In this document: piece by piece, positions 7,638-18,892 of the stretch | Position numbering within the stretch: position 1 is the stretch's first letter | Layout: each line of letters starts with the position of its first letter | DNA from: Anaerolineales bacterium UBA3905 | Lineage (GTDB): Bacteria > Chloroflexota > Anaerolineae > Caldilineales > Caldilineaceae | DNA: 64,000 nucleotides | NCBI GenBank assembly: GCA_002391565.1 | Contig: DGFH01000301.1 | Location: forward strand, 8,122-72,121 | Reading direction: 5' to 3' | Notes under the pieces: model-generated | What the model was told of the DNA's origin: nothing | Seen by the model: the letters and a program-made list of their open reading frames with translations, nothing else | Database searches by the model: none | Position numbers and translations under genes: made by a program

Positions 7638-8474
7638 TCATGGTTGTGCAACCACGTTTGCACGCCAAATGGCACTGTCGATCTGCACAGCGTGGGCGCC
7701 GGCGGCGAGCGCATGGCGGACATGCATTGCATGAAGCACACCACCGCTCGCAATTAGAGCGCAGTCAAGTTGCGCCGCCGCCACCTCACGCAACACATTC
7801 ATCATCAGGGAAAATGCGCCAGTTCCATAAAGCGCACCGGCGACGGACGCTGACTCACCCATCACTGGATCAGAACGGAAGGCAACGCCCGGCGCCGGTT
7901 GGCCGACAACCACGCCGACCGCCCCCGCCGACACTGCACGCGTCGCCAGTGTTACGGCATTTGTCAATGGCAGCTTCACCCAGACTGGCGCATCACAAAC
8001 CTGCACCAATGCACGCACGCCATCGGCTGCCAGCGCAGGCGTTATGGCTGACGGCAGATTCCACTCGATGGCGGCCACCCCAGGCGCATGCGCCAGATGG
8101 CGCGCCGACTGCACCAGCTCCGCAACTGTGGCATCGACCAGTTGCACGATTACTGGACAGGCAAGCCGTTGCCAGATGGCGCCATAACGCGTCACGGCGC
8201 GACGTGCGCTGCGGCTGAAGCCAGCATCCCGCACCAACAGGCCGCCATCCAACTCGATCAGCGTTGCCGGCCCGCTGTAGCCGCGCCCTGCCGCACTGAC
8301 CGGGCCAACGATCAGCGCCCCGATTTCTGCCAGCTTGAGACCAGGCGGCAATGGATCGCCAAAGCCAGCCGCTGTCGGCGAGAGCAAGATCGGGGAGGTC
8401 ACCACCAATCCTTGTTTGTGACCGGGCGCCAGATCAATTTCGACCAGGAGGCTGCGTTGTTCAGCTTCACTCAT
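7638..8474 (-). CDS. Dihydroorotate dehydrogenase (PyrD type 1)-like protein, catalytic motif degenerate
   Basis: PyrD-like layout (SPILLS, PVIVQL, PVWVKL, LIASGGV, AGAHAVQI) but EWNLPSA in place of ELNxSCPN. Confidence 0.6.
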   Translation of the reverse strand: MSEAEQRSLLVEIDLAPGHKQGLVVTSPILLSPTAAGFGDPLPPGLKLAEIGALIVGPVSAAGRGYSGPATLIELDGGLLVRDAGFSRSARRAVTRYGAIWQRLACPVIVQLVDATVAELVQSARHLAHAPGVAAIEWNLPSAITPALAADGVRALVQVCDAPVWVKLPLTNAVTLATRAVSAGAVGVVVGQPAPGVAFRSDPVMGESASVAGALYGTGAFSLMMNVLREVAAAQLDCALIASGGVLHAMHVRHALAAGAHAVQIDSAIWRANVVAQP

Positions 8475-8480
8475 ATTGCA

Positions 8481-10508
8481 CTATCGCCGCTCGCTGTTTG
8501 CCAGCACGGCCAGCTCACCGGTGTCCTGATTGCCTAACAACACTGCGCCCTCGAAGCCTTGAATCACCAGCGCAAAGTCGCGCGGTTGCGGCTCAGTGGC
8601 AAACCCCAGCGCCTCCCAACGTCGATCCGCCTGCCACAGCGCTGCAAAACGATCCAACGGCGCAAAGAGTCCCTCTGGCGGCGGCGGTAGATCGGGCGGC
8701 GGGGCGCTCACCTCGGGGATCGGTTGGCGCTCCCAAGCATTGGTGGGGAAATAAACGACATAGAGTTCGGGCGCCGCCACCAGCCCGGCCATGTACCCAT
8801 GCTCGAAAGGCAACATTTGCGCTGCGCCGCGCTGGGCGTCGCCGATAGGACAGCCAATCGCACGGCGCTCTTCCGCCGGGAGTGCAGACAAACGCTGGCG
8901 CAGCGCTTCATCCACTTGTGGCAGACACGCTGCAAGCGCCGCATCCGGGTCAGGCGTCGGTGTGAAGGTTGCCGGCGGGGTCGCCGTCTCTGTGGGAGTG
9001 GGAGGCGGCGCCTCCGTCGGCGTTGCGGTTGCAGTTGGCGCTGGCAGCGCAGTGGCGGTAGGTAATTGCGTCGGCGTTGCCGGTGTTATCGCGGCGTCGC
9101 CGCCGGCGCTTTCGTCCACGATAGGAGGGGTAGCCACAATGTCAGCTGTTGGCGTCGTCCCATCTGTCAGGGAAGTGACGCCTGGCAGCGAGGTTGACCC
9201 GGCAAGCGTGGGCGTCAGTGAGACGCCGCCGCGCAAGAGGCGCGGCGTCTGCATCCCCAGGAGTACGCCTAATGCCATCACCAGCAAACCGCCCACAACG
9301 ATCAACAGAACGTTGACCCATGTTGGCCGCGCCGGGCGCACTGGCGGTGGCGTCGATACAGGCGGCGTCAGGGGCGCTGGCGCCAATGTCGGCGCCGCGG
9401 CAATCGTCGGCTGTGCGGCGCGCAGCAGCGGGTTGGCAGCACGCGCCCCCAGCGCACCGCCAGGCGCCGGCACCAGCACGGTCGAGGAAGTGGTCTCTGT
9501 CGGCGGATTGACCACCGGCACGGCAGTCATCGTCAGCGTGGCGGTGCTCTCGCCTGTCATCGCGTTTGGGCGTGGCGGCGTGCGCCCGGCGGCCAGCGCC
9601 AGCGCATCGGCCATGTCGGCGGCGGTGGCGTAGCGATCCTCCGGGCGTTTCGCCAGACTGCGCTGCAGCACCTCCACCATCAGCGGCGAGAGCTGGCGGA
9701 AGACGCTATCCTCAATGGTCAGCGGTTCGTAAACGTGCGCGTGCAGAATTTGCGTTGTTGTGCCGGTAAAGGGCAGACGCCCCGCCACACAACGGTAGAG
9801 CACTGCGCCCAGTGCATAGATATCGGCGCGGCCATCGACCTCGCGACTCCCTGCACATTGCTCCGGCGCCATGTAGGCGGGCGTACCCACGGTGCGCCCC
9901 ATGTTTGTCAGTTCCGGCGCGTCGAGCGCGCGCGCAATGCCAAAGTCGGTCAAGAGCGGCACCACCGGGTAATCGAGCGCCTCAAGCTGGATGCTGTGTG
10001 GTGCGCCGGGGCTGACCGGACGCAGCAAGATGTTGCCGGGCTTGACATCGCGATGGACAACGCCATGCCGATGCGCTTCGTCCAGGGCGCGGGCAATCGG
10101 TTCGAGCAGGTTGGCGGATTCCTCCGGGCGCAGCCGCCCCTGTTGGCGCAAGAGATCGGCCAGGCTTTCGCCCTCCACCAGTTCCATGGCGATATAGGCG
10201 ACCTCGCCTTGGGGTGCAATGCCGATCTGCAAGATGCGCACGATGTGGGGGTGGCGCAGCGCGCCGGCAGTCATCGCCTCGTTGCGAAAGCGCGTGTAGG
10301 CTTTGGCGTCGGCGCCGGGGAGCAGTAGCTTGAGCGCCACGGTCTGTCCCTGCACCTGGTCGTAGGCGCGATAGACCGTCGCCACCCCGCCGCTGCCCAG
10401 TTGCTGGCCGATCAGATAGCGCCCTAACTGCTTGCCGGTCAGGTTGGTCAGTCCTGCACCCAGGCTCTGACTGCCGCCCTGCTCATCCGCGCTCTCTAGC
10501 GTGTCCAC
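8481..10508 (-). CDS. Hanks-type Ser/Thr protein kinase: TM, Pro/Thr linker, extracytoplasmic LGFP-like domain
   Basis: LGSGGVATVY, VALK, HRDVKPGN, DFG, GTPAYMAPE; TM VLLIVVGGLLVMALGVLLG; start probably GTG 10508, overlapping the upstream kinase stop. Confidence 0.9.
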   Translation of the reverse strand: MDTLESADEQGGSQSLGAGLTNLTGKQLGRYLIGQQLGSGGVATVYRAYDQVQGQTVALKLLLPGADAKAYTRFRNEAMTAGALRHPHIVRILQIGIAPQGEVAYIAMELVEGESLADLLRQQGRLRPEESANLLEPIARALDEAHRHGVVHRDVKPGNILLRPVSPGAPHSIQLEALDYPVVPLLTDFGIARALDAPELTNMGRTVGTPAYMAPEQCAGSREVDGRADIYALGAVLYRCVAGRLPFTGTTTQILHAHVYEPLTIEDSVFRQLSPLMVEVLQRSLAKRPEDRYATAADMADALALAAGRTPPRPNAMTGESTATLTMTAVPVVNPPTETTSSTVLVPAPGGALGARAANPLLRAAQPTIAAAPTLAPAPLTPPVSTPPPVRPARPTWVNVLLIVVGGLLVMALGVLLGMQTPRLLRGGVSLTPTLAGSTSLPGVTSLTDGTTPTADIVATPPIVDESAGGDAAITPATPTQLPTATALPAPTATATPTEAPPPTPTETATPPATFTPTPDPDAALAACLPQVDEALRQRLSALPAEERRAIGCPIGDAQRGAAQMLPFEHGYMAGLVAAPELYVVYFPTNAWERQPIPEVSAPPPDLPPPPEGLFAPLDRFAALWQADRRWEALGFATEPQPRDFALVIQGFEGAVLLGNQDTGELAVLANSERR

Positions 10509-13246
10509 TGAATCGAATGCTCCAACCAGTTCGTCAATACACCTTCGACTGCAAACAAGGGCACCGCAACGCCGCCATCGATGGGTGCAGCATAAATGCG
10601 CCACACCCCGCCCCGGTCGCTGGCAAAGATCACGAGTTTCCCATCCGGGCTGATGGCCGGCAGCCCATCTTGCGCCGGATCATCGGTCAGTTGCAGTAGC
10701 GTGCCATCGCGCAGAGAGAGCCGGTAGACATCCCAATCGCCATTACGCGTGCTCATGAAGACGACGTTGTTGCCGTTGGGCGACCACACAGGGCGAATGT
10801 CGTTGCCGTTATCGGTGAGCCGCAAGCGATTTTCGCCATTGGTGGTCATGATATACAACCCCGGCTGCGCACCACGACTATCGACGCCATTGTAGATGAT
10901 GCGATTGGCAGCCGGCTCCCACGCCGGGTCTTTGCCCAGACCGAGATCCACTTCGGCGCCATCAGCGAGCGTGTGCACAAAAATACGCGACTGCTGATCG
11001 TCAGCCCGCACTGTGCTATACGCCAGCGCGCTGCCATCCGACGCCCAGGCTGGCGGCGCATCCAGCGCATCCTCGGGCGAAGAGGTCAATTGCTGCGTTC
11101 GTGCTGTAGGATCGCGTGTTGCGGCCAGATCATAAAGCGCAATGCCCGGCTCACCTGGTCGCAAATTGCGAAACGCCAGCAGCGCCCCCGCACGCTGCGC
11201 ACCGACCTGAGCGCCGTCGGCAATCAAGAGCGTCGAGTCGCTATTGACCTGCGCTGGCGCCGCGTAGATATTGTAGCGGTCACCCTCTTGGGTGGAATAG
11301 AGGATGCGTCCGCCGTTCTCGCTCAACTGTGCACTGATGGCAGCCAACGCCCGCGCCTGTTCACAGCCCGTGCGGTAGGCAGGCAGCTGCGTGTCAAGGA
11401 CGCCATCAGGCCAGACAGCCAACGCCGCCGTCAACTGCGCCGCTGCGCTGCAATATGCTTCTGCCTGCGCCAGTTGTTCGGCGTAGGCGACCAGCGCTCC
11501 CCATAATACGCGCCGGATCGAGGCGGCCGCCTCACCCTCGGCCGTGATCAGCGCGCTGGTGGCCGTGCGGATACGCTGCACCGGTTCGGCGTCGGGACGT
11601 AATGCCAGCGCAGCATCAAGGGCCTTGACCGCACGATCTAGCTGACCATTCGTCAACGCCTCCGCCGCCAACCCGATCTGCACGTCGAAAAGCCGGGCAG
11701 CGATGGTCTCCTGTTGATAGCTGGCATCGATGCGCTGCACCAATGTATAGAAGTCGAGCGCCACCTGCCAGTCCTGGTCGGCGTAAGCATCTTCCGCCTC
11801 GCGCCAGTAGCCCTCGATGGCGCCAGCGGGCGTAGGCGGCGGCGACGTGGCTGTGGCAGTGGATGCAACGCCTGGTGTGGCGTCTGGGGTCGCTGTCACG
11901 GTTTCAACATCAGTGTTGGAAGGAGGCGTTAGCAGAACGGTGGGCGTGCTCATGGCGGCGACCGTGGCGGCGGCCGGCGCTCGTGTGCGACCAAACAAAT
12001 CGTTCGGCAACAGATTGAGCACAGCCCAGATTGCTCCAGTAAGCAGCAAGAGCGAAATAGCCGCGCCGAGCATCGCCCCTATCCAACGGCGCCGTCCGGG
12101 CGCCACTGCTGTAGATACAGGCGGGGCAACAGGCGCTATTGACGCCAGCCGCTCACCGGGTTCAGCCGGCGCCTGCGGCGGGGTTTCCGGTGGGCGCACC
12201 GCTGGCGCCGGCACCAGCACCTGCATTGCTTCGACGGGACGCACGGTGGGTAGAGCGGGCATCGTCGCCGTGCTCTCGACTGCTGGCGCCGGCAGAGGAG
12301 GAGCAAGTTGCTCCAACGCCGCCGCCATCGCCGCGCCAGAAGCATAACGGGCGGCGGGGTCTTTTGCCAGTGAACGCTGTAAAATCTCCACAGCGGCGGC
12401 GGGCAATGTCGTCAACACTGTCTCCGGGATCAGCAATGGCTCGTAGACATGTGCGTGTAGAATCTGTGTGGTCGAGCCAGTGAAAGGGGGGCGCCCCACC
12501 AGACAGCGATAGAAGACTGCGCCCAACGAGTATAAGTCCGACCGCTGATCGAGTTCATGGCTGTCGGCGCACTGCTCCGGCGACATATAGGTTGGCGTGC
12601 CAATGGTGCGCCCAACGCCGGTCAGTTCTGGCGCATCGAGCGCGCGCGCGATGCCGAAATCGCTGAGCAGCGGAATCACGACCTCACCCATTGCGGCAAC
12701 GAAGACGGCGCCTGGCTGCCCGGCAGCGGCTGTTTGCAGCAACACGTTGCTCGGCTTGACATCGCGATGAATAATGCCCTGGCGGTGGGCGTAATCCAAC
12801 GCCCGCGCCACGCGCGCCAGAATTCCCGCTGCGTCACTCACCGACAGACGTTCCTGCGCCTCGATCAGTCCATTCAGCCCGGCGCCCACGATCAAGGGCA
12901 TGACCAGATAGGTGAGGCCGCTGGCATCTTCGTAACCTTCAGCCAGGATCGGGACAATGTTAGGATGGCGGAGCTGACGATGTGTGCGCGCCTCTTGCTG
13001 AAAACGCGCCCGCACGATAGCGTCAGCGTCGGGCAGCAACACCTTGACGGCCACAACCTCACCCGTCGCCAGCGACTGGGCGCGGTAGACAGCCGCCATG
13101 ACGCCGCCCCCCAGTTTCTCCACCAACCGGTATTGTCCAACCTGATAGCCGACAAGTGGACCGCGCGCGCCAGCGCTCTGCACGGCGGTCGGCGGTGCAG
13201 ACGATCCAGTTTCCGGCTCGATAGACGAACGTTCGGCAGACGACAT
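10496..13246 (-). CDS. Hanks-type Ser/Thr protein kinase: TM, TPR-like helices, TolB/PD40 beta-propeller
   Basis: LGGGVMAAVY, VAVK, HRDVKPSN, DFG, GTPTYMSPE; TM; helical repeats; PAW/PVWSPNG/PAISPDG PD40 repeats. Confidence 0.92.
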   Translation of the reverse strand: MSSAERSSIEPETGSSAPPTAVQSAGARGPLVGYQVGQYRLVEKLGGGVMAAVYRAQSLATGEVVAVKVLLPDADAIVRARFQQEARTHRQLRHPNIVPILAEGYEDASGLTYLVMPLIVGAGLNGLIEAQERLSVSDAAGILARVARALDYAHRQGIIHRDVKPSNVLLQTAAAGQPGAVFVAAMGEVVIPLLSDFGIARALDAPELTGVGRTIGTPTYMSPEQCADSHELDQRSDLYSLGAVFYRCLVGRPPFTGSTTQILHAHVYEPLLIPETVLTTLPAAAVEILQRSLAKDPAARYASGAAMAAALEQLAPPLPAPAVESTATMPALPTVRPVEAMQVLVPAPAVRPPETPPQAPAEPGERLASIAPVAPPVSTAVAPGRRRWIGAMLGAAISLLLLTGAIWAVLNLLPNDLFGRTRAPAAATVAAMSTPTVLLTPPSNTDVETVTATPDATPGVASTATATSPPPTPAGAIEGYWREAEDAYADQDWQVALDFYTLVQRIDASYQQETIAARLFDVQIGLAAEALTNGQLDRAVKALDAALALRPDAEPVQRIRTATSALITAEGEAAASIRRVLWGALVAYAEQLAQAEAYCSAAAQLTAALAVWPDGVLDTQLPAYRTGCEQARALAAISAQLSENGGRILYSTQEGDRYNIYAAPAQVNSDSTLLIADGAQVGAQRAGALLAFRNLRPGEPGIALYDLAATRDPTARTQQLTSSPEDALDAPPAWASDGSALAYSTVRADDQQSRIFVHTLADGAEVDLGLGKDPAWEPAANRIIYNGVDSRGAQPGLYIMTTNGENRLRLTDNGNDIRPVWSPNGNNVVFMSTRNGDWDVYRLSLRDGTLLQLTDDPAQDGLPAISPDGKLVIFASDRGGVWRIYAAPIDGGVAVPLFAVEGVLTNWLEHSIQWTR

Positions 13247-13279
13247 GCTTGGCAGATCAGACCTGTGCAGGCTGATTCT

Positions 13280-13308
13280 TTGCGGGTTGCTTTAGTTGCT
13301 GCTATAGT
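13280..13308 (+). promoter_or_regulatory. Putative promoter of the FHA regulator
   Basis: TTGCGG-17 nt-TATAGT with extended TG. Confidence 0.55.
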
Positions 13309-13353
13309 TTTCAACGACGTGCAGCAAGCGAAAAGTTCGCGAGCTGCGCTGCG

Positions 13354-13362
13354 AGTATAGCA
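13354..13362 (-). promoter_or_regulatory. Putative extended -10 promoter of the kinase operon
   Basis: TGcTATACT on the minus strand; no good -35. Confidence 0.4.
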
Positions 13363-13394
13363 CAGCGCATGAGTGGAAGCTAAAGGAGTCGCGT

Positions 13395-14036
13395 GTGAGC
13401 AGGTTTGGTCGATTGGTCTGTCTCAATGGCCCCCAAGCCGGCCAGGAGATCGAGCTAGATCGGGAAGTGATAACGGTCGGACGCTCCGCCGATGCTGGCG
13501 TTCGCCTGGAAGATCAATATGCTTCACGCCAGCACGCCGAGATTTTACACTTCGACAGCGGCTATCAGGTGCGCGATCTGCAGAGCAAAAATGGCGTCTT
13601 CGTCGACGGTCAACGACTGGCGCCGGGCGGCGCGGCCTGGCTTGCCGATGGAATGGAGGTGCAATTCGCCTCGACGCGCTATCGCTTCTACGACCCGGCG
13701 GCCACCGTAACAGCGCCTTCACTCATCGCTGTCAGCGAACCGGGGCTGCGCATCGACATCACCACGCGCCAGGTCTATGTCGACGGTCAGCCGCTTGACC
13801 CACCGCTGAGCGTCAAACAGTTTGACCTGCTCTGGTTTCTTTATCAAAATCGTGGCCGCGTCGTCAGCAAGGATGAGATTGCCCAGGCTGTGTGGCCGGA
13901 AGCTCAGGGTGATGTCTACGACGCCAATATCGACCGCATGGTCAGCCGCGTGCGCAGTCGCATCGAGCCAGAACGCGAAGATGACCCGCGCTTCATCCAC
14001 ACTATTCGCGGCTACGGCTATAAGCTAGAGACGTGA
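13395..14036 (+). CDS. FHA domain plus OmpR/PhoB-type winged-helix transcription regulator
   Basis: FHA motifs GRS, SRQHA, DLQSKNGVFV; C-terminal LLWFL...VVSKDEI...VSRVRSRIE...IHTIRGYGY. Confidence 0.9.
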   Translation: MSRFGRLVCLNGPQAGQEIELDREVITVGRSADAGVRLEDQYASRQHAEILHFDSGYQVRDLQSKNGVFVDGQRLAPGGAAWLADGMEVQFASTRYRFYDPAATVTAPSLIAVSEPGLRIDITTRQVYVDGQPLDPPLSVKQFDLLWFLYQNRGRVVSKDEIAQAVWPEAQGDVYDANIDRMVSRVRSRIEPEREDDPRFIHTIRGYGYKLET

Positions 14037-14307
14037 ATTGCGTTGACTTTTCACCAGCGCCGTACTACTCACCGCGTGTTGCGTGACAGGCGCCTGATGC
14101 ACCACGCACTACGCAACACCGGTGATAGAACCGCCTGCCTGTCAGGCAATCCAAACAATTGGTAACGCCGTCAGTCGGGCAACGGTTCCCCAAGCGTAGG
14201 AAAACAGTCCGACTTGCGTCCCAGTTTTTTCAAGTTCGCCTAATCTTTCCCCGCTACAATGGTCTCACCTTGCGCATTTTGCGCGTGTGAAAGAACAAGG
14301 AGAGACC

Positions 14308-14997
14308 ATGACCTCCACTGTCAATACATTGCGTTCGAGCGTACAACTCACCCCGTCTTGGCGACCAGCTGCCGTTGCGACCACCATGACCTGGGATGCG
14401 CTGCCGACGCCACGCGTCAACGCGGTTGATAACACGATCCAGGCTGCGCGCCTGGGTGACGATGGCGCCTTTGCAACGTTGATTGATCTCTACCGTTCCG
14501 CCGCCGAACGCGTTGCGCAGCAGATACTGCACACCGAGGAAGCCGCCGCCGATGCGGTGCAAGAAGCGATGATCAAGGCGCACCGCGCCATGACGCGCTT
14601 CCAGGAAGGCAATTTCCGTTCCTGGTTTCTGCGAATTGTCACCAATACTTGCTATGATCATCTTCGTCGTCAACGCCGGCGCGCTGCCGTCAGTCTGGAT
14701 GAGTTGACCGAACAGGCTGGCATCGATTATCTGTCGACCGAGGAATATGTAGCAGAAGACCCAGAGAGCCTAGTTTTACAGAATGAGGGGATGCGCTGTC
14801 TGCTCGCTGCAATCGATGACTTGCCAGAGTATCATCGTAACGTGGTAATGCTCGTGGATGTGCAGGGTTATGATTACGCCGAAGCCGCCGATCTGCTGGG
14901 GTTGCCGTTAGGCACCGTCAAGTCACGCCTGAGCCGGGCGCGGTCGGCGCTGCGCGACCAGTTGGTCAAAGCCGGGATCGTCGGCGCGCCGATGTGA
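14308..14997 (+). CDS. ECF RNA polymerase sigma factor
   Basis: Region 2 (DAVQEAM...FRSWFLRIVTNTCYDHLRR) and region 4 (IDDLPEYHR...YAEAADLLGLPLGTVKSRLSRAR); AAGGAG RBS before ATG 14308. Confidence 0.9.
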   Translation: MTSTVNTLRSSVQLTPSWRPAAVATTMTWDALPTPRVNAVDNTIQAARLGDDGAFATLIDLYRSAAERVAQQILHTEEAAADAVQEAMIKAHRAMTRFQEGNFRSWFLRIVTNTCYDHLRRQRRRAAVSLDELTEQAGIDYLSTEEYVAEDPESLVLQNEGMRCLLAAIDDLPEYHRNVVMLVDVQGYDYAEAADLLGLPLGTVKSRLSRARSALRDQLVKAGIVGAPM

Positions 14998-15018
14998 AAA
15001 CCGCTCTCCAGCCGTCCC

Positions 15019-15888
15019 TCACCCAAGTGTAAATTCCCACTTTCCTGGCCCATGCGTCGCCAGGTACAGCGGTACAGCCTTATCCAGATCGTTGCGCACG
15101 TCGGCGGGCTGGCTGCGCAACCAGATGCCGAAGTCGCTGCTGTAGGGTTCGCCGCTCTCAGCGGTGAGCAGGTGCAGTTCACCAATGGCGCCGGTCGCCG
15201 CCAACATCCCCGAAGACTGAAAGGCTGCCCGCAAACCGCCATGGTCGTACTCCACCTGGCGAAAGCACGCTGCCCACCGATGCACGCCCTGTTCGTTCAC
15301 AGCATCGAGCACCAGGTATTGAGCACGCGGGTCGCTGTTGTAGGGCAAACCGATGCTGCCGCCGTTGTAGATGGTCCAGTCGCCGGTGCGCCGCGCCATA
15401 GGACGATGGGTGTGTGCGCAGACAACCACCGGTTCGGCGACGCCATCAAGCAACGAGGCAATCGTGTCGCCCCCCATCTCGGGATATAGCCCCAGGAACA
15501 TATTGCCAGGCGAGCCATGAAAGAGCCGAATCGGCGGAAAGGGAGGCAGATCGATGCGCCGCGCCGCCGGCAATCGACGCAACACCTGCAGGTGACGCGG
15601 GTGAAGCGTCTCCGCCGTCCACCAGAGCGAACGGAAGCGCTGGCGGTCGGTGAAGGGTGGCATATTGTGCGGCGTATGGATGCGCCCCACCACCAGGTCG
15701 TGATTGCCAACGACGCCCGGCCAGCCAGTGTCCGTTAGCACGTCCATCACTTCATTGTTCCATGGGCAGCGGTTAACCAGGTCGCCAACAAGAAAGATCA
15801 GATCCGGCGCCTGACGGCGCAAGTCACACAACACAGCTTCCAGCGCAGGCAAGTTGCCATGGATATCGGCGAGAAAAGCGAGACGCAT
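15019..15888 (-). CDS. Metallophosphoesterase (calcineurin-like)
   Basis: ADIHGN, GDLV, GNHD, FHGSP, AHTH, NGGSIG. Confidence 0.9.
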   Translation of the reverse strand: MRLAFLADIHGNLPALEAVLCDLRRQAPDLIFLVGDLVNRCPWNNEVMDVLTDTGWPGVVGNHDLVVGRIHTPHNMPPFTDRQRFRSLWWTAETLHPRHLQVLRRLPAARRIDLPPFPPIRLFHGSPGNMFLGLYPEMGGDTIASLLDGVAEPVVVCAHTHRPMARRTGDWTIYNGGSIGLPYNSDPRAQYLVLDAVNEQGVHRWAACFRQVEYDHGGLRAAFQSSGMLAATGAIGELHLLTAESGEPYSSDFGIWLRSQPADVRNDLDKAVPLYLATHGPGKWEFTLG

Positions 15889-15905
15889 TGAACGGCGCTT
15901 TCTGT

Positions 15906-16880
15906 TTAGCCAACGAGTCGGGTGTGAAGTGGATCGGTCTGGCGGATCACTTCGGCGCGGCCGCTCTCGCGCACATAACGCTGAAAGACTTCCCGCAAGC
16001 CATCGCGGTCGGGGTCAAGTCCCCGATCATAGGCCCACCGGTAGAAGTAAATAATCTCCGGCTCGGCGCTCACCAGTTCCCAGTAAAATAGCGACGAGAT
16101 CGGGCCGCCCGCCTCCAGCATCCCCGACGTCGAGAACGACTCCAGGGCAGGGCGCCGATCATAGGCAACCTCGTGATGTTGAGCACGCCACCCACCGCGT
16201 TCAGTGGCGTCGTCCACACTCTCCAGCAAGGCGAACTGCGCCGTTGTGCGCTGATTCAACGGCAAGCCCACGCTGCCCGGGTTGATGATGTGCCAGTGAC
16301 GGATGACGGCGGTTGGTCGGTGCATATCGCCGTGCGGGTGCGTGCTCAACTCACCGTTGGCTTCGGGCGACCATCGGACGTGACGGTCGATCTGCACATG
16401 AGTATGGGCGGTGACGAAGGTCGCCTCGTGCACGTCGGCCAGTTCGGCGGCGATCTTGTCGTCCGGTTGGCTGCGATAAAGCCCCACCCGGTTGCGCCCC
16501 GGCAATCCATGCGTGATGCGCAACGGCTGAGCGCCGGGTAGATAAAAGGTGCGATCGTCGGGCAGCATGGCCAGGTAGGCGGCCTGCGCCGGCGTAATGC
16601 GGTCGTACAACCAGTGCAGTTGCCCCCAGCGTTCGGCGTCGTCGCTGCCGGGTATAGCGCGTGCGGTGCCCAGGTCGAGCAGGTAGAACTCGTGATTGCC
16701 GCGCACAACCACCCAGTCCAGCTCACCAATACGGTCGATCACTTCGCTGCTAAAAGGAACGCCGTTGATCAGGTCGCCGTCGACCACCACATAGTCGGGC
16801 TGAAGGCGCTCTAGCTCGCGCGTGACTGCCTCCAGCGCCGGCAAATTCCCGTGAATATCTGCCAAAATCGCCAGTTTCAT
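15906..16880 (-). CDS. Metallophosphoesterase (calcineurin-like), tandem paralog
   Basis: ADIHGN, GDLI, GNHE, THG, AHTH, NPGSVG; start could be 16880 or 16886. Confidence 0.9.
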   Translation of the reverse strand: MKLAILADIHGNLPALEAVTRELERLQPDYVVVDGDLINGVPFSSEVIDRIGELDWVVVRGNHEFYLLDLGTARAIPGSDDAERWGQLHWLYDRITPAQAAYLAMLPDDRTFYLPGAQPLRITHGLPGRNRVGLYRSQPDDKIAAELADVHEATFVTAHTHVQIDRHVRWSPEANGELSTHPHGDMHRPTAVIRHWHIINPGSVGLPLNQRTTAQFALLESVDDATERGGWRAQHHEVAYDRRPALESFSTSGMLEAGGPISSLFYWELVSAEPEIIYFYRWAYDRGLDPDRDGLREVFQRYVRESGRAEVIRQTDPLHTRLVG

Positions 16881-16954
16881 GTGCAATGCTCACCACTGTT
16901 TCTATCTGCAGATGACGCGGAGAAGCACGGCTTTTCTGCGCCCATGCGGTTCGC

Positions 16955-18100
16955 TCAGCTCAAGATGGAGCGGGCAATCACCATGCGCTGGATTTCGCTA
17001 GTGCCCTCGCCGATCGACATGAGGCGCGTGTCGCGATACATCCGCTCGACTTCGTATTCGCGACTGTAGCCATAGCCGCCGTGAATCTGGATAGCGTTGC
17101 GGCAGACGCGCTCGCTGACCTCAGTGGCAAAGAGCTTGGCCATGCCTGCCTGCGTCGCAAAGGGCCGGCCTTGATCCTTAAGCCATGCTGCATGGTAGAG
17201 CATCAGACGGGCGGCGTGCAACTCGGTGGCGGCGTCGGCGAGCATAAATTGGATCGCCTGGAAGTTGGCGATCGGCTGGCCAAAGGCCTCGCGCTGTTTG
17301 GCGTAGGCCAGGGCGCGTTCGTACGCTGCCTGGCCGATGCCCAGCGCCAGCGCGCCGATGCTGATGCGCCCATTGCTCAAGGTCGCCAACGTCTGCGGCA
17401 GGCCGCGTCCTTCCTCGCCCACCAGGTTTGTCAGCGGCACGCGCACATTGTCGAGCGTGACGGCATGCGTCGGTGAGCCGTTCAGCCCCATCTTTTTCTC
17501 CGGCGGCCCGACGATCACGCCCGGCGCGTCGGTGGGCACCAGAATCTGACTCAGGCTGCGGCTGCCGCCGGCGGGGTCGGTGCGACAGAGTACGATCATC
17601 GTGTCGGCGATGCCGGCGTTGGTGGCCCACATCTTGGCGCCGTTGATGACCCAGGCGTCGCCGTCGCGCACCGCCTGCGTGCGCACGCCGCCCTGCAAGT
17701 CGGAGCCGGCGCCCGGCTCGGTGAGCGCCAGGCAGGCCAGCCGGCCGCGTCCGGTCGCCAGGCGCGGCAGCCACTGCCGCTTGAGTTCCTCTGAGCCAAA
17801 AGCCACAAGCGGCCCCATGCCCAGGTGATTGTGCGCCGAGATCGCCAGCGCCGTAGAGCCGCAGCCCCAACCCAACTCTTCGATGGCGATGGTGGCGCAC
17901 AGTGTGTCAAGCGCGGCGCCGCCGTATTCCTCCGGCGCCTGCAGGCCCAGCATGCCCAGCGGCCCCATCTTGCGTACAGCCTCCCAATTGAATTCGCCGG
18001 TTTCGTCCACGTGGCGCGCGCGAGGGCGCACTTCCCTGTCCACAAAGTCGTGCACGACGCGGCGGAATTCGCGCTGTTCAGCAGTCAGATCGAAGTTCAT
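16955..18100 (-). CDS. Acyl-CoA dehydrogenase
   Basis: ALTEPGAGSD, NGAKMWATN, KMGL, QFGQ-like AFGQPIANFQ, IQIHGGYGY, IGEGTSEIQR. Confidence 0.95.
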   Translation of the reverse strand: MNFDLTAEQREFRRVVHDFVDREVRPRARHVDETGEFNWEAVRKMGPLGMLGLQAPEEYGGAALDTLCATIAIEELGWGCGSTALAISAHNHLGMGPLVAFGSEELKRQWLPRLATGRGRLACLALTEPGAGSDLQGGVRTQAVRDGDAWVINGAKMWATNAGIADTMIVLCRTDPAGGSRSLSQILVPTDAPGVIVGPPEKKMGLNGSPTHAVTLDNVRVPLTNLVGEEGRGLPQTLATLSNGRISIGALALGIGQAAYERALAYAKQREAFGQPIANFQAIQFMLADAATELHAARLMLYHAAWLKDQGRPFATQAGMAKLFATEVSERVCRNAIQIHGGYGYSREYEVERMYRDTRLMSIGEGTSEIQRMVIARSILS

Positions 18101-18304: not shown

Positions 18305-18892
18305 ATGCAAGGCACCGTAGTCAAATTCGACGATAAAAAGGGCTTTGGCTTCATCCAGCCGGACGGACAGGCGGAACAGGTCTTCGTACACGCCAGCGCC
18401 GTGACCACAACAGGGCGGCTGGCACAGGGGCAGCGCGTCACTTTCGACGTGACACCCTCGCCCAAAGGCCCGCGCGCAAGCAATGTCCTGGTGGCAGGCG
18501 CGGCGGCAAAATCGGCGCCAACCCGCAACACGACGCCAGTTTCGCCGTATATGCTCTTTGGCGGGCTGGCCGTGAGCGACACCGCCATTGTCATGGCACT
18601 CGGCATGTTCGTCTTCTCGCTGGCATGGCTGTGGGCCTACCTGATCGCGATCAACGTGACCACCTTGATGCTGTACTACTACGACAAGCGCGCACCGCAA
18701 CATGGCAGGCTGCGCGTGCCCGAACGCATCTTGCACCTGGCGGAGTTGTTCGGCGGCACACCGGCAGGCTTCATCGGGCAGCATGTGCTCCACCATAAAT
18801 CTGCCAAAGGCAGCTATCAACTCAATTTCTGGCTGATCGTCGTCGTTCAGGTGTTGATCCTCATTGGGCTTTACTGGTTGGGATGGATGTGA
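18305..18892 (+). CDS. Cold-shock domain fused to DUF1294 membrane domain
   Basis: KGFGFI and VFVH RNP motifs; YDKRA...RVPE..LH...GG..G...GQHVLHHKS DUF1294 motif. Confidence 0.9.
   Translation: MQGTVVKFDDKKGFGFIQPDGQAEQVFVHASAVTTTGRLAQGQRVTFDVTPSPKGPRASNVLVAGAAAKSAPTRNTTPVSPYMLFGGLAVSDTAIVMALGMFVFSLAWLWAYLIAINVTTLMLYYYDKRAPQHGRLRVPERILHLAELFGGTPAGFIGQHVLHHKSAKGSYQLNFWLIVVVQVLILIGLYWLGWM

Follow-up and report, generated by a model that had tools for sequence, protein, structure and literature searches.

A Hanks kinase gene paired with an FHA–winged-helix regulator gene in Caldilineaceae: a candidate Ser/Thr counterpart of two-component systems with an ECF sigma factor as its probable output

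Bacterial Hanks kinases usually have many substrates and few dedicated transcription partners, and EmbR/PknH is the textbook exception. In this Mycobacterium tuberculosis pair a membrane Hanks kinase adjoins a regulator with an FHA domain and an OmpR-like winged helix, and the FHA domain reads phosphothreonine (pThr) on the kinase (PMC4601284). Here we describe a locus of similar layout within a 64,000-nucleotide (nt) stretch from Anaerolineales bacterium UBA3905, a member of the Caldilineaceae in the Chloroflexota (GenBank assembly GCA_002391565.1, contig DGFH01000301.1, positions 8,122 to 72,121 of the forward strand). This whole stretch is referred to below as the window, and positions are counted from its first letter. 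The source genome is a 5.9-Mb draft and is 92.6% complete. Analyses of the open reading frames (ORFs) with Pfam and NCBIfam, in which domain matches were far above chance, identified between positions 8481 and 16886 the six genes that a preliminary description had placed there: two transmembrane (TM) Hanks kinases (K1 and K2), a regulator joining an FHA domain to a winged helix-turn-helix (FHA-wHTH), an extracytoplasmic function (ECF) sigma factor and two calcineurin-like metallophosphoesterases (MPE1 and MPE2). That description had combined all of them in one self-contained phospho-signaling system. Our analyses indicated that the six genes are not one six-part system and that the locus holds instead a kinase/FHA-wHTH core module. 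The reading we prefer, to which we assign a probability of about 0.58, is that the kinase/FHA-wHTH pair, with transcription of the ECF sigma gene as its dedicated, family-specific output, is a Ser/Thr counterpart of a two-component system.

Two other kinds of described system bear on the sigma factor. In Streptomyces coelicolor the ECF sigma factor SigE (ECF39) has no anti-sigma factor and is under transcriptional control by CseBC (PMC8999054). The locus in the window resembles CseBC-SigE in that an ECF sigma gene with no anti-sigma gene adjoins the gene of an OmpR-type regulator that would answer a membrane sensor kinase, promoter control being suggested here by a set of DNA repeats; CseBC, however, comprises a histidine kinase and a receiver domain, whereas a Hanks kinase and an FHA domain are found here. 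EcfP/PknT of Vibrio parahaemolyticus, EcfK/PknS of Xanthomonas citri and the ECF43 group (PMC8999054, PMC13147305) likewise have an anti-sigma-less ECF sigma factor encoded near a membrane Hanks kinase. In EcfP the DAED motif of region 2.2 is missing, STTA stands in its place, and the second Thr is phosphorylated (PMC8999054). Unlike in ECF43, an FHA-wHTH gene and a repeat-bearing promoter stand between the kinase genes and the sigma gene of the window.

The kinase genes K1 (8481-10508, minus strand; Pkinase E=4.4e-44) and K2 (10496-13246, minus strand; Pkinase E=2.5e-41) are divergent from the regulator gene (13395-14036, plus strand; FHA E=1.3e-17, Trans_reg_C E=4.5e-20). To assess synteny in the family, the window proteins were mapped by tblastn to regulator loci, and each denominator given here is the number of loci with enough flanking sequence; the closest loci all came from metagenome-assembled Caldilineaceae/Caldilineales genomes. 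A Hanks kinase gene was divergent from the regulator gene at 60 of 61 Caldilineaceae loci, and the sole exception resembles a fragmented assembly. Two tandem kinase genes stood beside the regulator at 38/57 loci and one at 19/57. Among distant Chloroflexota, in which the regulator homologs were 33–49% identical, a divergent kinase gene was present in 24 of the 29 best loci. Of 20 additional loci, taken from other families (33–41% identity), 17 had it too, giving 41/49. The sigma gene was downstream of the regulator gene and on the same strand at 42/59 family loci, and an MPE gene was within 8 kb at 22/51. The other neighbors were housekeeping genes of variable presence, encoding a radical-SAM enzyme, Dtd, a GH42 protein, threonine aldolase, PurB and a methyltransferase. 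Set against these variable neighbors, the 60/61 pairing indicated that the linkage of kinase and regulator is far above background and that the linkage of the MPE genes is not. Neighborhood conservation, which had been proposed as a check on the six-gene system, was therefore observed for the kinase/regulator pair and at 42/59 loci for the sigma gene, and did not extend to the MPE genes, whose frequency was at the level of housekeeping genes.

The source genome encodes nine Hanks kinases and three kinase/FHA-wHTH pairs (contigs C324, C241 and C26). In the further pair at C241:31011-33130 the genes are divergent, and in that at C26:172-3825 they are co-operonic, with a kinase of 1001 amino acids (aa); no sigma gene adjoins either of these pairs. 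Full-length FHA-wHTH homologs were identified in ~90 of 401 sampled Chloroflexota genomes; within the class itself, 44 of the 45 other genomes sampled had one. When 1.8 billion representative proteins were searched, most of the 150 top matches were ~210 aa long and aligned over both domains, and the regulator family comprises well over a hundred clusters at 50% identity. Within the 72 loci examined the regulator orthologs were 65–95% identical, an unusually high conservation. In the cultured relative Litorilinea aerophila the regulator is 76% identical. Our literature search for FHA-OmpR regulators in Chloroflexota yielded only work on EmbR and reviews of a general kind, and no description of this family. 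Based on its phylum-wide distribution, its three copies in this genome and the size of the family, the one-kinase/one-regulator module looks much more general than the mycobacterial exception.

The regulator itself is 213 aa long, with the FHA domain at residues 1-100, a disordered linker at 104-115 and an OmpR/PhoB-type winged helix at 117-213. Analyses of residue conservation in 34 regulator sequences, down to 41% identity, showed that G29, R30, S44, R45, H47, S64, N66 and G67 of the FHA domain were invariant, and these include the pThr-binding residues R30, S44, H47 and N66. In a DPxAT motif, D100, A103 and T104 were invariant and P101 nearly so. AlphaFold2 predicted two confident domains and no fixed arrangement between them, with a predicted local distance difference test score (pLDDT) below 50 in the linker and a predicted template modeling score (pTM) of 0.49. 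The invariant Thr of DPxAT, Thr104 (codon at 13704-13706, plus strand), is the first residue of the linker. Since it is positioned where the disordered linker begins, Thr104 is predicted to be exposed and is a candidate phospho-acceptor. The protein shares its C-terminal Trans_reg_C winged helix with OmpR/PhoB response regulators, which carry a receiver domain with phospho-Asp. Here the receiver has been replaced by an FHA input domain, and the NCBIfam response-regulator models covered only residues ~95-213.

Comparison with EmbR revealed clear differences in architecture. EmbR is a SARP-type protein of ~390 aa with the order wHTH-BTAD-FHA, whereas the regulator here has the order FHA-linker-wHTH, gave no match to the BTAD domain in Pfam and has no sequence kinship to EmbR beyond the shared domains. 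Two further differences from PknH-EmbR are the presence of two tandem kinases and a sigma gene as the likely target. The best-supported reading is that the kinase/FHA-wHTH pair works in a manner analogous to PknH-EmbR while belonging to a different family.

Direct reading of the kinase sequences showed complete VA[IV]K, HRD, DFG and APE motifs in both K1 and K2, two paralogs whose catalytic domains are 54% identical. An insert of ~13 residues between the HRDVKPxN catalytic loop and DFG is common to K1 (~9950-10060) and K2 (~12620-12730, both minus strand), its K1 version being ILLRPVSPGAPHSIQLEALDYPVVPLLTDFG. The two kinases had been described as TM proteins with different outer domains, and our analyses agreed: each has a single TM helix. 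In K2 the cytoplasmic catalytic domain is followed by a juxtamembrane linker, the TM helix, a helical region that resembles TPRs and an ectodomain with a PD40/TolB-like beta-propeller (PD40 E=3.4e-22, TolB propeller E=1.6e-28). In K1 the kinase domain and TM helix are followed by a Pro/Thr-rich spacer and a C-terminal ectodomain of 147 aa (8484-8924, minus strand) that had no Pfam match. This ectodomain was conserved across 25 aligned orthologs, in which a single Cys and several Trp and Gly residues did not vary, and was modeled by AlphaFold2 with a pLDDT of 94.3. The best Foldseek match in the PDB had E=0.19 and a template modeling score of at most 0.27, with only chance-level, galectin-like similarity. 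Based on this model, the K1 ectodomain may represent an undescribed sensor fold.

The juxtamembrane linkers of the kinases offer a plausible site of contact with the regulator. A consensus TxT[L/M] was identified in K2 (ESTATMPALP, 12248-12277, minus strand) and in K1 (ESTATLTMTAVP, 9516-9551, minus strand). Across the family, both paralogs have this motif (here ESTATL or ESTATM) and VLVP ~15 residues further on, and the linkers are otherwise variable. Bacterial FHA domains prefer pT-x-x-hydrophobic. Either Thr of TxT[L/M] has Leu or Met at +3, matching pT-x-x-L/M, and the motif is therefore a plausible FHA docking site and, judged from its sequence, a candidate site of autophosphorylation. 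Together with the invariant pThr-binding residues and the divergent kinase genes in family and distant loci, this shared motif supported the view that the locus encodes a writer and a reader of phosphothreonine.

The evidence for a transcriptional output came from the region between the regulator gene and the sigma gene (14308-14997, plus strand; Sigma70_r2, Sigma70_r4_2 and TIGR02937). In the alignment of relatives this region comprises, in order, a conserved block, a TAAT/TAAG motif, a −10-like hexamer, a GC hairpin, an AAGGAG ribosome-binding site and the ATG at 14308. The sigma ORF opens at GTG 14287, and the conserved start is ATG 14308, which is kept in relatives along with AAGGAG. Upstream of it lies an array of three to four 11-bp direct repeats (14195-14238, plus strand; family consensus GGnnAACnGTCCGnnTnnnGTCnnnnnnnnnTCA), in which R0 is CGTAGGAAAAC, R1 is AGTCCGACTTG, R2 is CGTCCCAGTTT and R3, which occupies the −35 position, is TTTCAAGTTCG. 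One lineage shows a plain threefold repetition of the unit (GTCTGAAT, GTCTGAAT, GTCCGAC). Judged from the −10-like hexamer TACAAT (14255-14260, plus strand), which relatives keep here as TAnnAT and which lacks a good −35, the array spans ~−72 to −29 of the sigma promoter. Repeats overlapping the −35 region are the classic layout of OmpR/PhoB-activated promoters, and an 11-bp periodicity is typical of them. Of the 46 linked loci, 44 had the array upstream of the sigma gene, and loci lacking that gene had no array. Genome-wide it is unique: it scored 49.0 with a position weight matrix (PWM), and a genome-wide PWM search for further arrays that might define a regulon found none, the next-best site scoring 20.7. 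Based on this Pho-box-like placement, we propose the array as a candidate operator of the FHA-wHTH regulator.

Based on the domains, the catalytic and pThr-binding residues, the phylum-wide linkage and the conservation and uniqueness of the array, we infer the following scheme. An extracellular signal would activate K1 and K2, which would autophosphorylate, including at the juxtamembrane TxT[L/M]. The FHA domain of the regulator would dock on this pThr, and the regulator would then be phosphorylated, probably on Thr104, and/or oligomerize. In this state it would bind the 11-bp repeats head to tail and turn on transcription of the sigma gene. No anti-sigma-like gene adjoins the sigma gene in the window, as had been described, and none was seen among those downstream genes in relatives that were read directly and not by Pfam, which encode a DeoR regulator, a secreted propeller, a membrane hydrolase, an aminotransferase, a GNAT protein and an MPE. 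With no anti-sigma partner, the sigma factor would be active upon synthesis and would redirect RNA polymerase to its regulon. If correct, this would be a third route from Ser/Thr kinases (STKs) to ECF sigma factors, beside anti-sigma control and direct sigma phosphorylation, and the compact set of sensor, regulator and promoter could serve as a tool, with a K1 ectodomain that has no structural relative. A more far-reaching version, which we advance only tentatively and would not expect to hold in full, is that FHA-wHTH regulators and Hanks kinases form a widespread Thr-based counterpart of two-component systems, each genome having several paralogous pairs. In this version the FHA domain and phospho-Thr104 would replace the receiver and its phospho-Asp, oligomerization would proceed head to tail on 11-bp repeats, and the ECF sigma promoter would be the single dedicated target in Caldilineaceae, in a cascade with neither an anti-sigma factor nor sigma phosphorylation.

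Several observations weigh against the sigma promoter being the output of this regulator, and most of them favor the main rival explanation, that the kinase/FHA-wHTH pair is real and the sigma gene only a neighbor by descent, with the array bound by another regulator or forming an unusual self-promoter of the sigma factor and the targets of the regulator lying elsewhere. The sigma gene was unlinked from the regulator gene at 17 of 59 family loci. In 14 of the 15 remaining genomes a sigma ortholog was found elsewhere (55–68% identical, vs. ~45% for the next paralog), so that the term self-contained was too strong for this locus. When the two genes part, the array travels with the sigma gene and not with the regulator gene, being kept at 12 of 14 relocated sigma orthologs. 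None of the 49 distant loci had a sigma gene beside the regulator gene, which indicates that the sigma output would be specific to Caldilineaceae. Housekeeping neighbors are similarly conserved, for example a PyrD-like gene after the kinase genes at 40/52 family loci. The genome encodes more than 10 other Trans_reg_C/OmpR-family proteins, and since every family genome has both the array and the regulator, their co-occurrence cannot name the protein that binds the repeats. Neither the alignment nor the PWM placed a copy of the array in the kinase/FHA intergenic region, and the residue at +3 of Thr104 is Ala or Gly, which is not the classic FHA preference. Against descent alone stand the uniqueness of the array and its 11-bp periodicity, typical of OmpR/PhoB-type binding, and its position, which in most loci starts 12–330 bp past the stop codon of the regulator gene. 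The intergenic region of the highly conserved regulator gene itself contains no other candidate operator. An ECF-type autoregulated promoter was considered and rejected, as the array spacing misfits an ECF −35/−10 pair (AAC to CGTC, 11 nt vs. the usual ~16 nt). On balance we consider the rival unlikely. We hold it to be quite improbable that the regulator instead represses the sigma promoter and that kinase signaling relieves this repression, for example by membrane capture. The overlap of R3 with the −35 region is also compatible with repression, and the regulator would be sequestered if its FHA domain docked on the juxtamembrane pThr; the lack of a recognizable −35 is, however, typical of activator dependence, and repeats reaching to ~−72 fit class I/II activation better.

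The preferred reading, a transcriptional output through the sigma promoter, was also weighed against the idea that all six genes act as one system in which the kinases phosphorylate the sigma factor directly, as in EcfP/PknT, and the MPEs dephosphorylate the pathway. An anti-sigma-less ECF sigma gene does indeed lie near kinase genes. The sigma protein (229 aa) has a variable, Ser/Thr-rich N-terminal extension of ~45 aa, and its DAED position is partly degenerate, with an invariant Thr ahead of it; both features count against a purely transcriptional output. In addition, according to a review (PMC8999054), Ser/Thr is found within or near the DAED motif of STK-linked ECF groups outside ECF43. 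Region 2.2 of the sigma factor in the window is, however, T-E-E-AAAD, and in the 44 orthologs the DAED position was AAAD in 37, AASD in 4 and AATD, SAAD and GAAD in one each, always after T-[E/D]-[E/D]. Only 6/44 have Ser or Thr within it (38/44 have neither), and the position phosphorylated in EcfP is Ala in 39/44. Whereas ECF43 proteins lack DAED and have the phospho-acceptor Thr in place (STTA), the proteins here have Ala at that position and keep the Asp. The EcfP-type site is thus missing, and some negative charge is retained, as one Asp and the two Glu before it. Based on these sequences, direct phospho-control of the sigma factor is unlikely to be the main route; the sigma factor described earlier as the output of the locus is probably that, through transcription from the repeat-bearing promoter and not through EcfP-like phosphorylation.

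The MPEs had been suggested as erasers, and this suggestion gained no support. MPE1 (15019-15888, minus strand) and its paralog MPE2 (15906-16886, minus strand) match Metallophos (E ~1e-15 each) and Metallophos_2 in Pfam, and their best NCBIfam matches, all below the curated cut-offs, were a YfcE-family phosphodiesterase, another phosphodiesterase model and ApaH. Their relatives of solved structure, with E-values reaching 1e-14, were a Sphaerobacter protein (3RQZ), SapH/Spr1479 (3QFM), YfcE (1SU1), two archaeal hypothetical proteins (PF1291-like) and a trypanosome protein (2QJC) labeled a putative diadenosine tetraphosphate (Ap4A) hydrolase; PPP protein phosphatases of the PrpA, lambda phosphatase or PP1 type were not among the solved-structure matches. 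SapH is an Ap4A/ATP hydrolase and phosphodiesterase. The Metallophos_2-type core and the metal-binding motifs are common to the MPEs, YfcE, SapH and 3RQZ; the MPEs differ in a C-terminal extension of ~60–90 aa. Their genes are convergent with the sigma gene (the stop codons are 21 bp apart) and co-directional with an acyl-CoA dehydrogenase gene (16955-18100), follow purB and a methyltransferase gene in other relatives, and are absent from 29/51 loci; the sigma and MPE genes of more distant Caldilineaceae are separated by a GNAT gene. An MPE gene was found ~1 kb downstream of 7 of 14 relocated sigma genes, which favors the six-gene idea to the extent that it ties the MPEs to the sigma factor rather than to the kinases. 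A convergent neighbor in shifting operon contexts is, however, weak evidence of a shared function, and adjacency alone is no ground for calling calcineurin-like neighbors pathway phosphatases. The PP2C models PF13672 and PF00481 had no match in the genome, which would leave room for such a role; three SpoIIE-type PPM phosphatases (GAF-PPM-HATPase, REC-PPM and a stand-alone protein of ~260 aa) are, however, encoded elsewhere, and candidate erasers therefore exist outside the locus. The sequence relationships indicate that MPE1 and MPE2 are most likely nucleotide or phosphodiester hydrolases outside the signaling module, and we regard a six-gene system with direct sigma phosphorylation as improbable.

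The intergenic region between K2 and the regulator gene contains predicted promoters for both transcription units. That of the regulator gene (13280-13308, plus strand), inferred from its sequence to be of the sigma-70 type, has a −35 TTGCGG, a 17-nt spacer and the extended −10 TGCTATAGT, and its hexamers were conserved in an alignment of 22 relatives. The box GAGTATAGCACAG (13353-13365), nearly invariant among close relatives, reads TGTGCTATACT on the minus strand, an extended −10 from which the kinase operon is probably transcribed. The boxes TGCTATAGT and AGTATAGCA (13300-13365) form an inverted repeat of extended −10 elements on opposite strands, ~47 nt apart, and look like constitutive, overlapping promoters of both units. 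With this arrangement the kinase and regulator mRNAs would overlap antisense by ~35 nt at their 5' ends. A simple promoter and terminator consensus scan did not call these conserved promoters. The closest relative (locus L001, upstream of position 10001) has an insertion of ~35 bp, made up of tandem TTTTCAACCTATAGG-like units, straight after the TGCTATAGT box.

Within the kinase operon, of which K2 is the first gene, K1 starts at GTG 10508 and not at GTG 10604. This start is preceded by GGAG and overlaps the K2 stop codon by 13 nt, indicating one operon for both kinases and suggesting translational coupling. The last gene of the operon is probably the PyrD-like gene (7638-8474, minus strand; Pfam DHO_dh E=7e-8), which starts 6 nt past the K1 stop codon. 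The kinase genes and the PyrD-like gene are separated, in more distant relatives, by a gene (cluster c5) for a lipoprotein whose linker is rich in Pro and Thr. A few kb past the PyrD-like gene, three relatives (loci L008, L010 and L041, ~1000-2600) carry another ECF sigma gene, a paralog, and after it the gene of a small anti-sigma-like membrane protein (c37).

The GC-rich hairpin GCGC-ATTTT-GCGC (14270-14286, plus strand) falls where the sigma mRNA is predicted to begin. Direct reading of the alignment showed that relatives also have hairpins here, with differing stem sequences, and RNAalifold on a MAFFT alignment gave only 3 pairs, an unconvincing case for covariation. The terminator scan detected none between the regulator and sigma genes or between the sigma gene and MPE1. 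Beyond the MPE genes, a cold-shock domain fused to a DUF1294 membrane domain is encoded at 18305-18892 (plus strand), divergent from the acyl-CoA dehydrogenase/MPE operon, and this arrangement is kept in the closest relatives.

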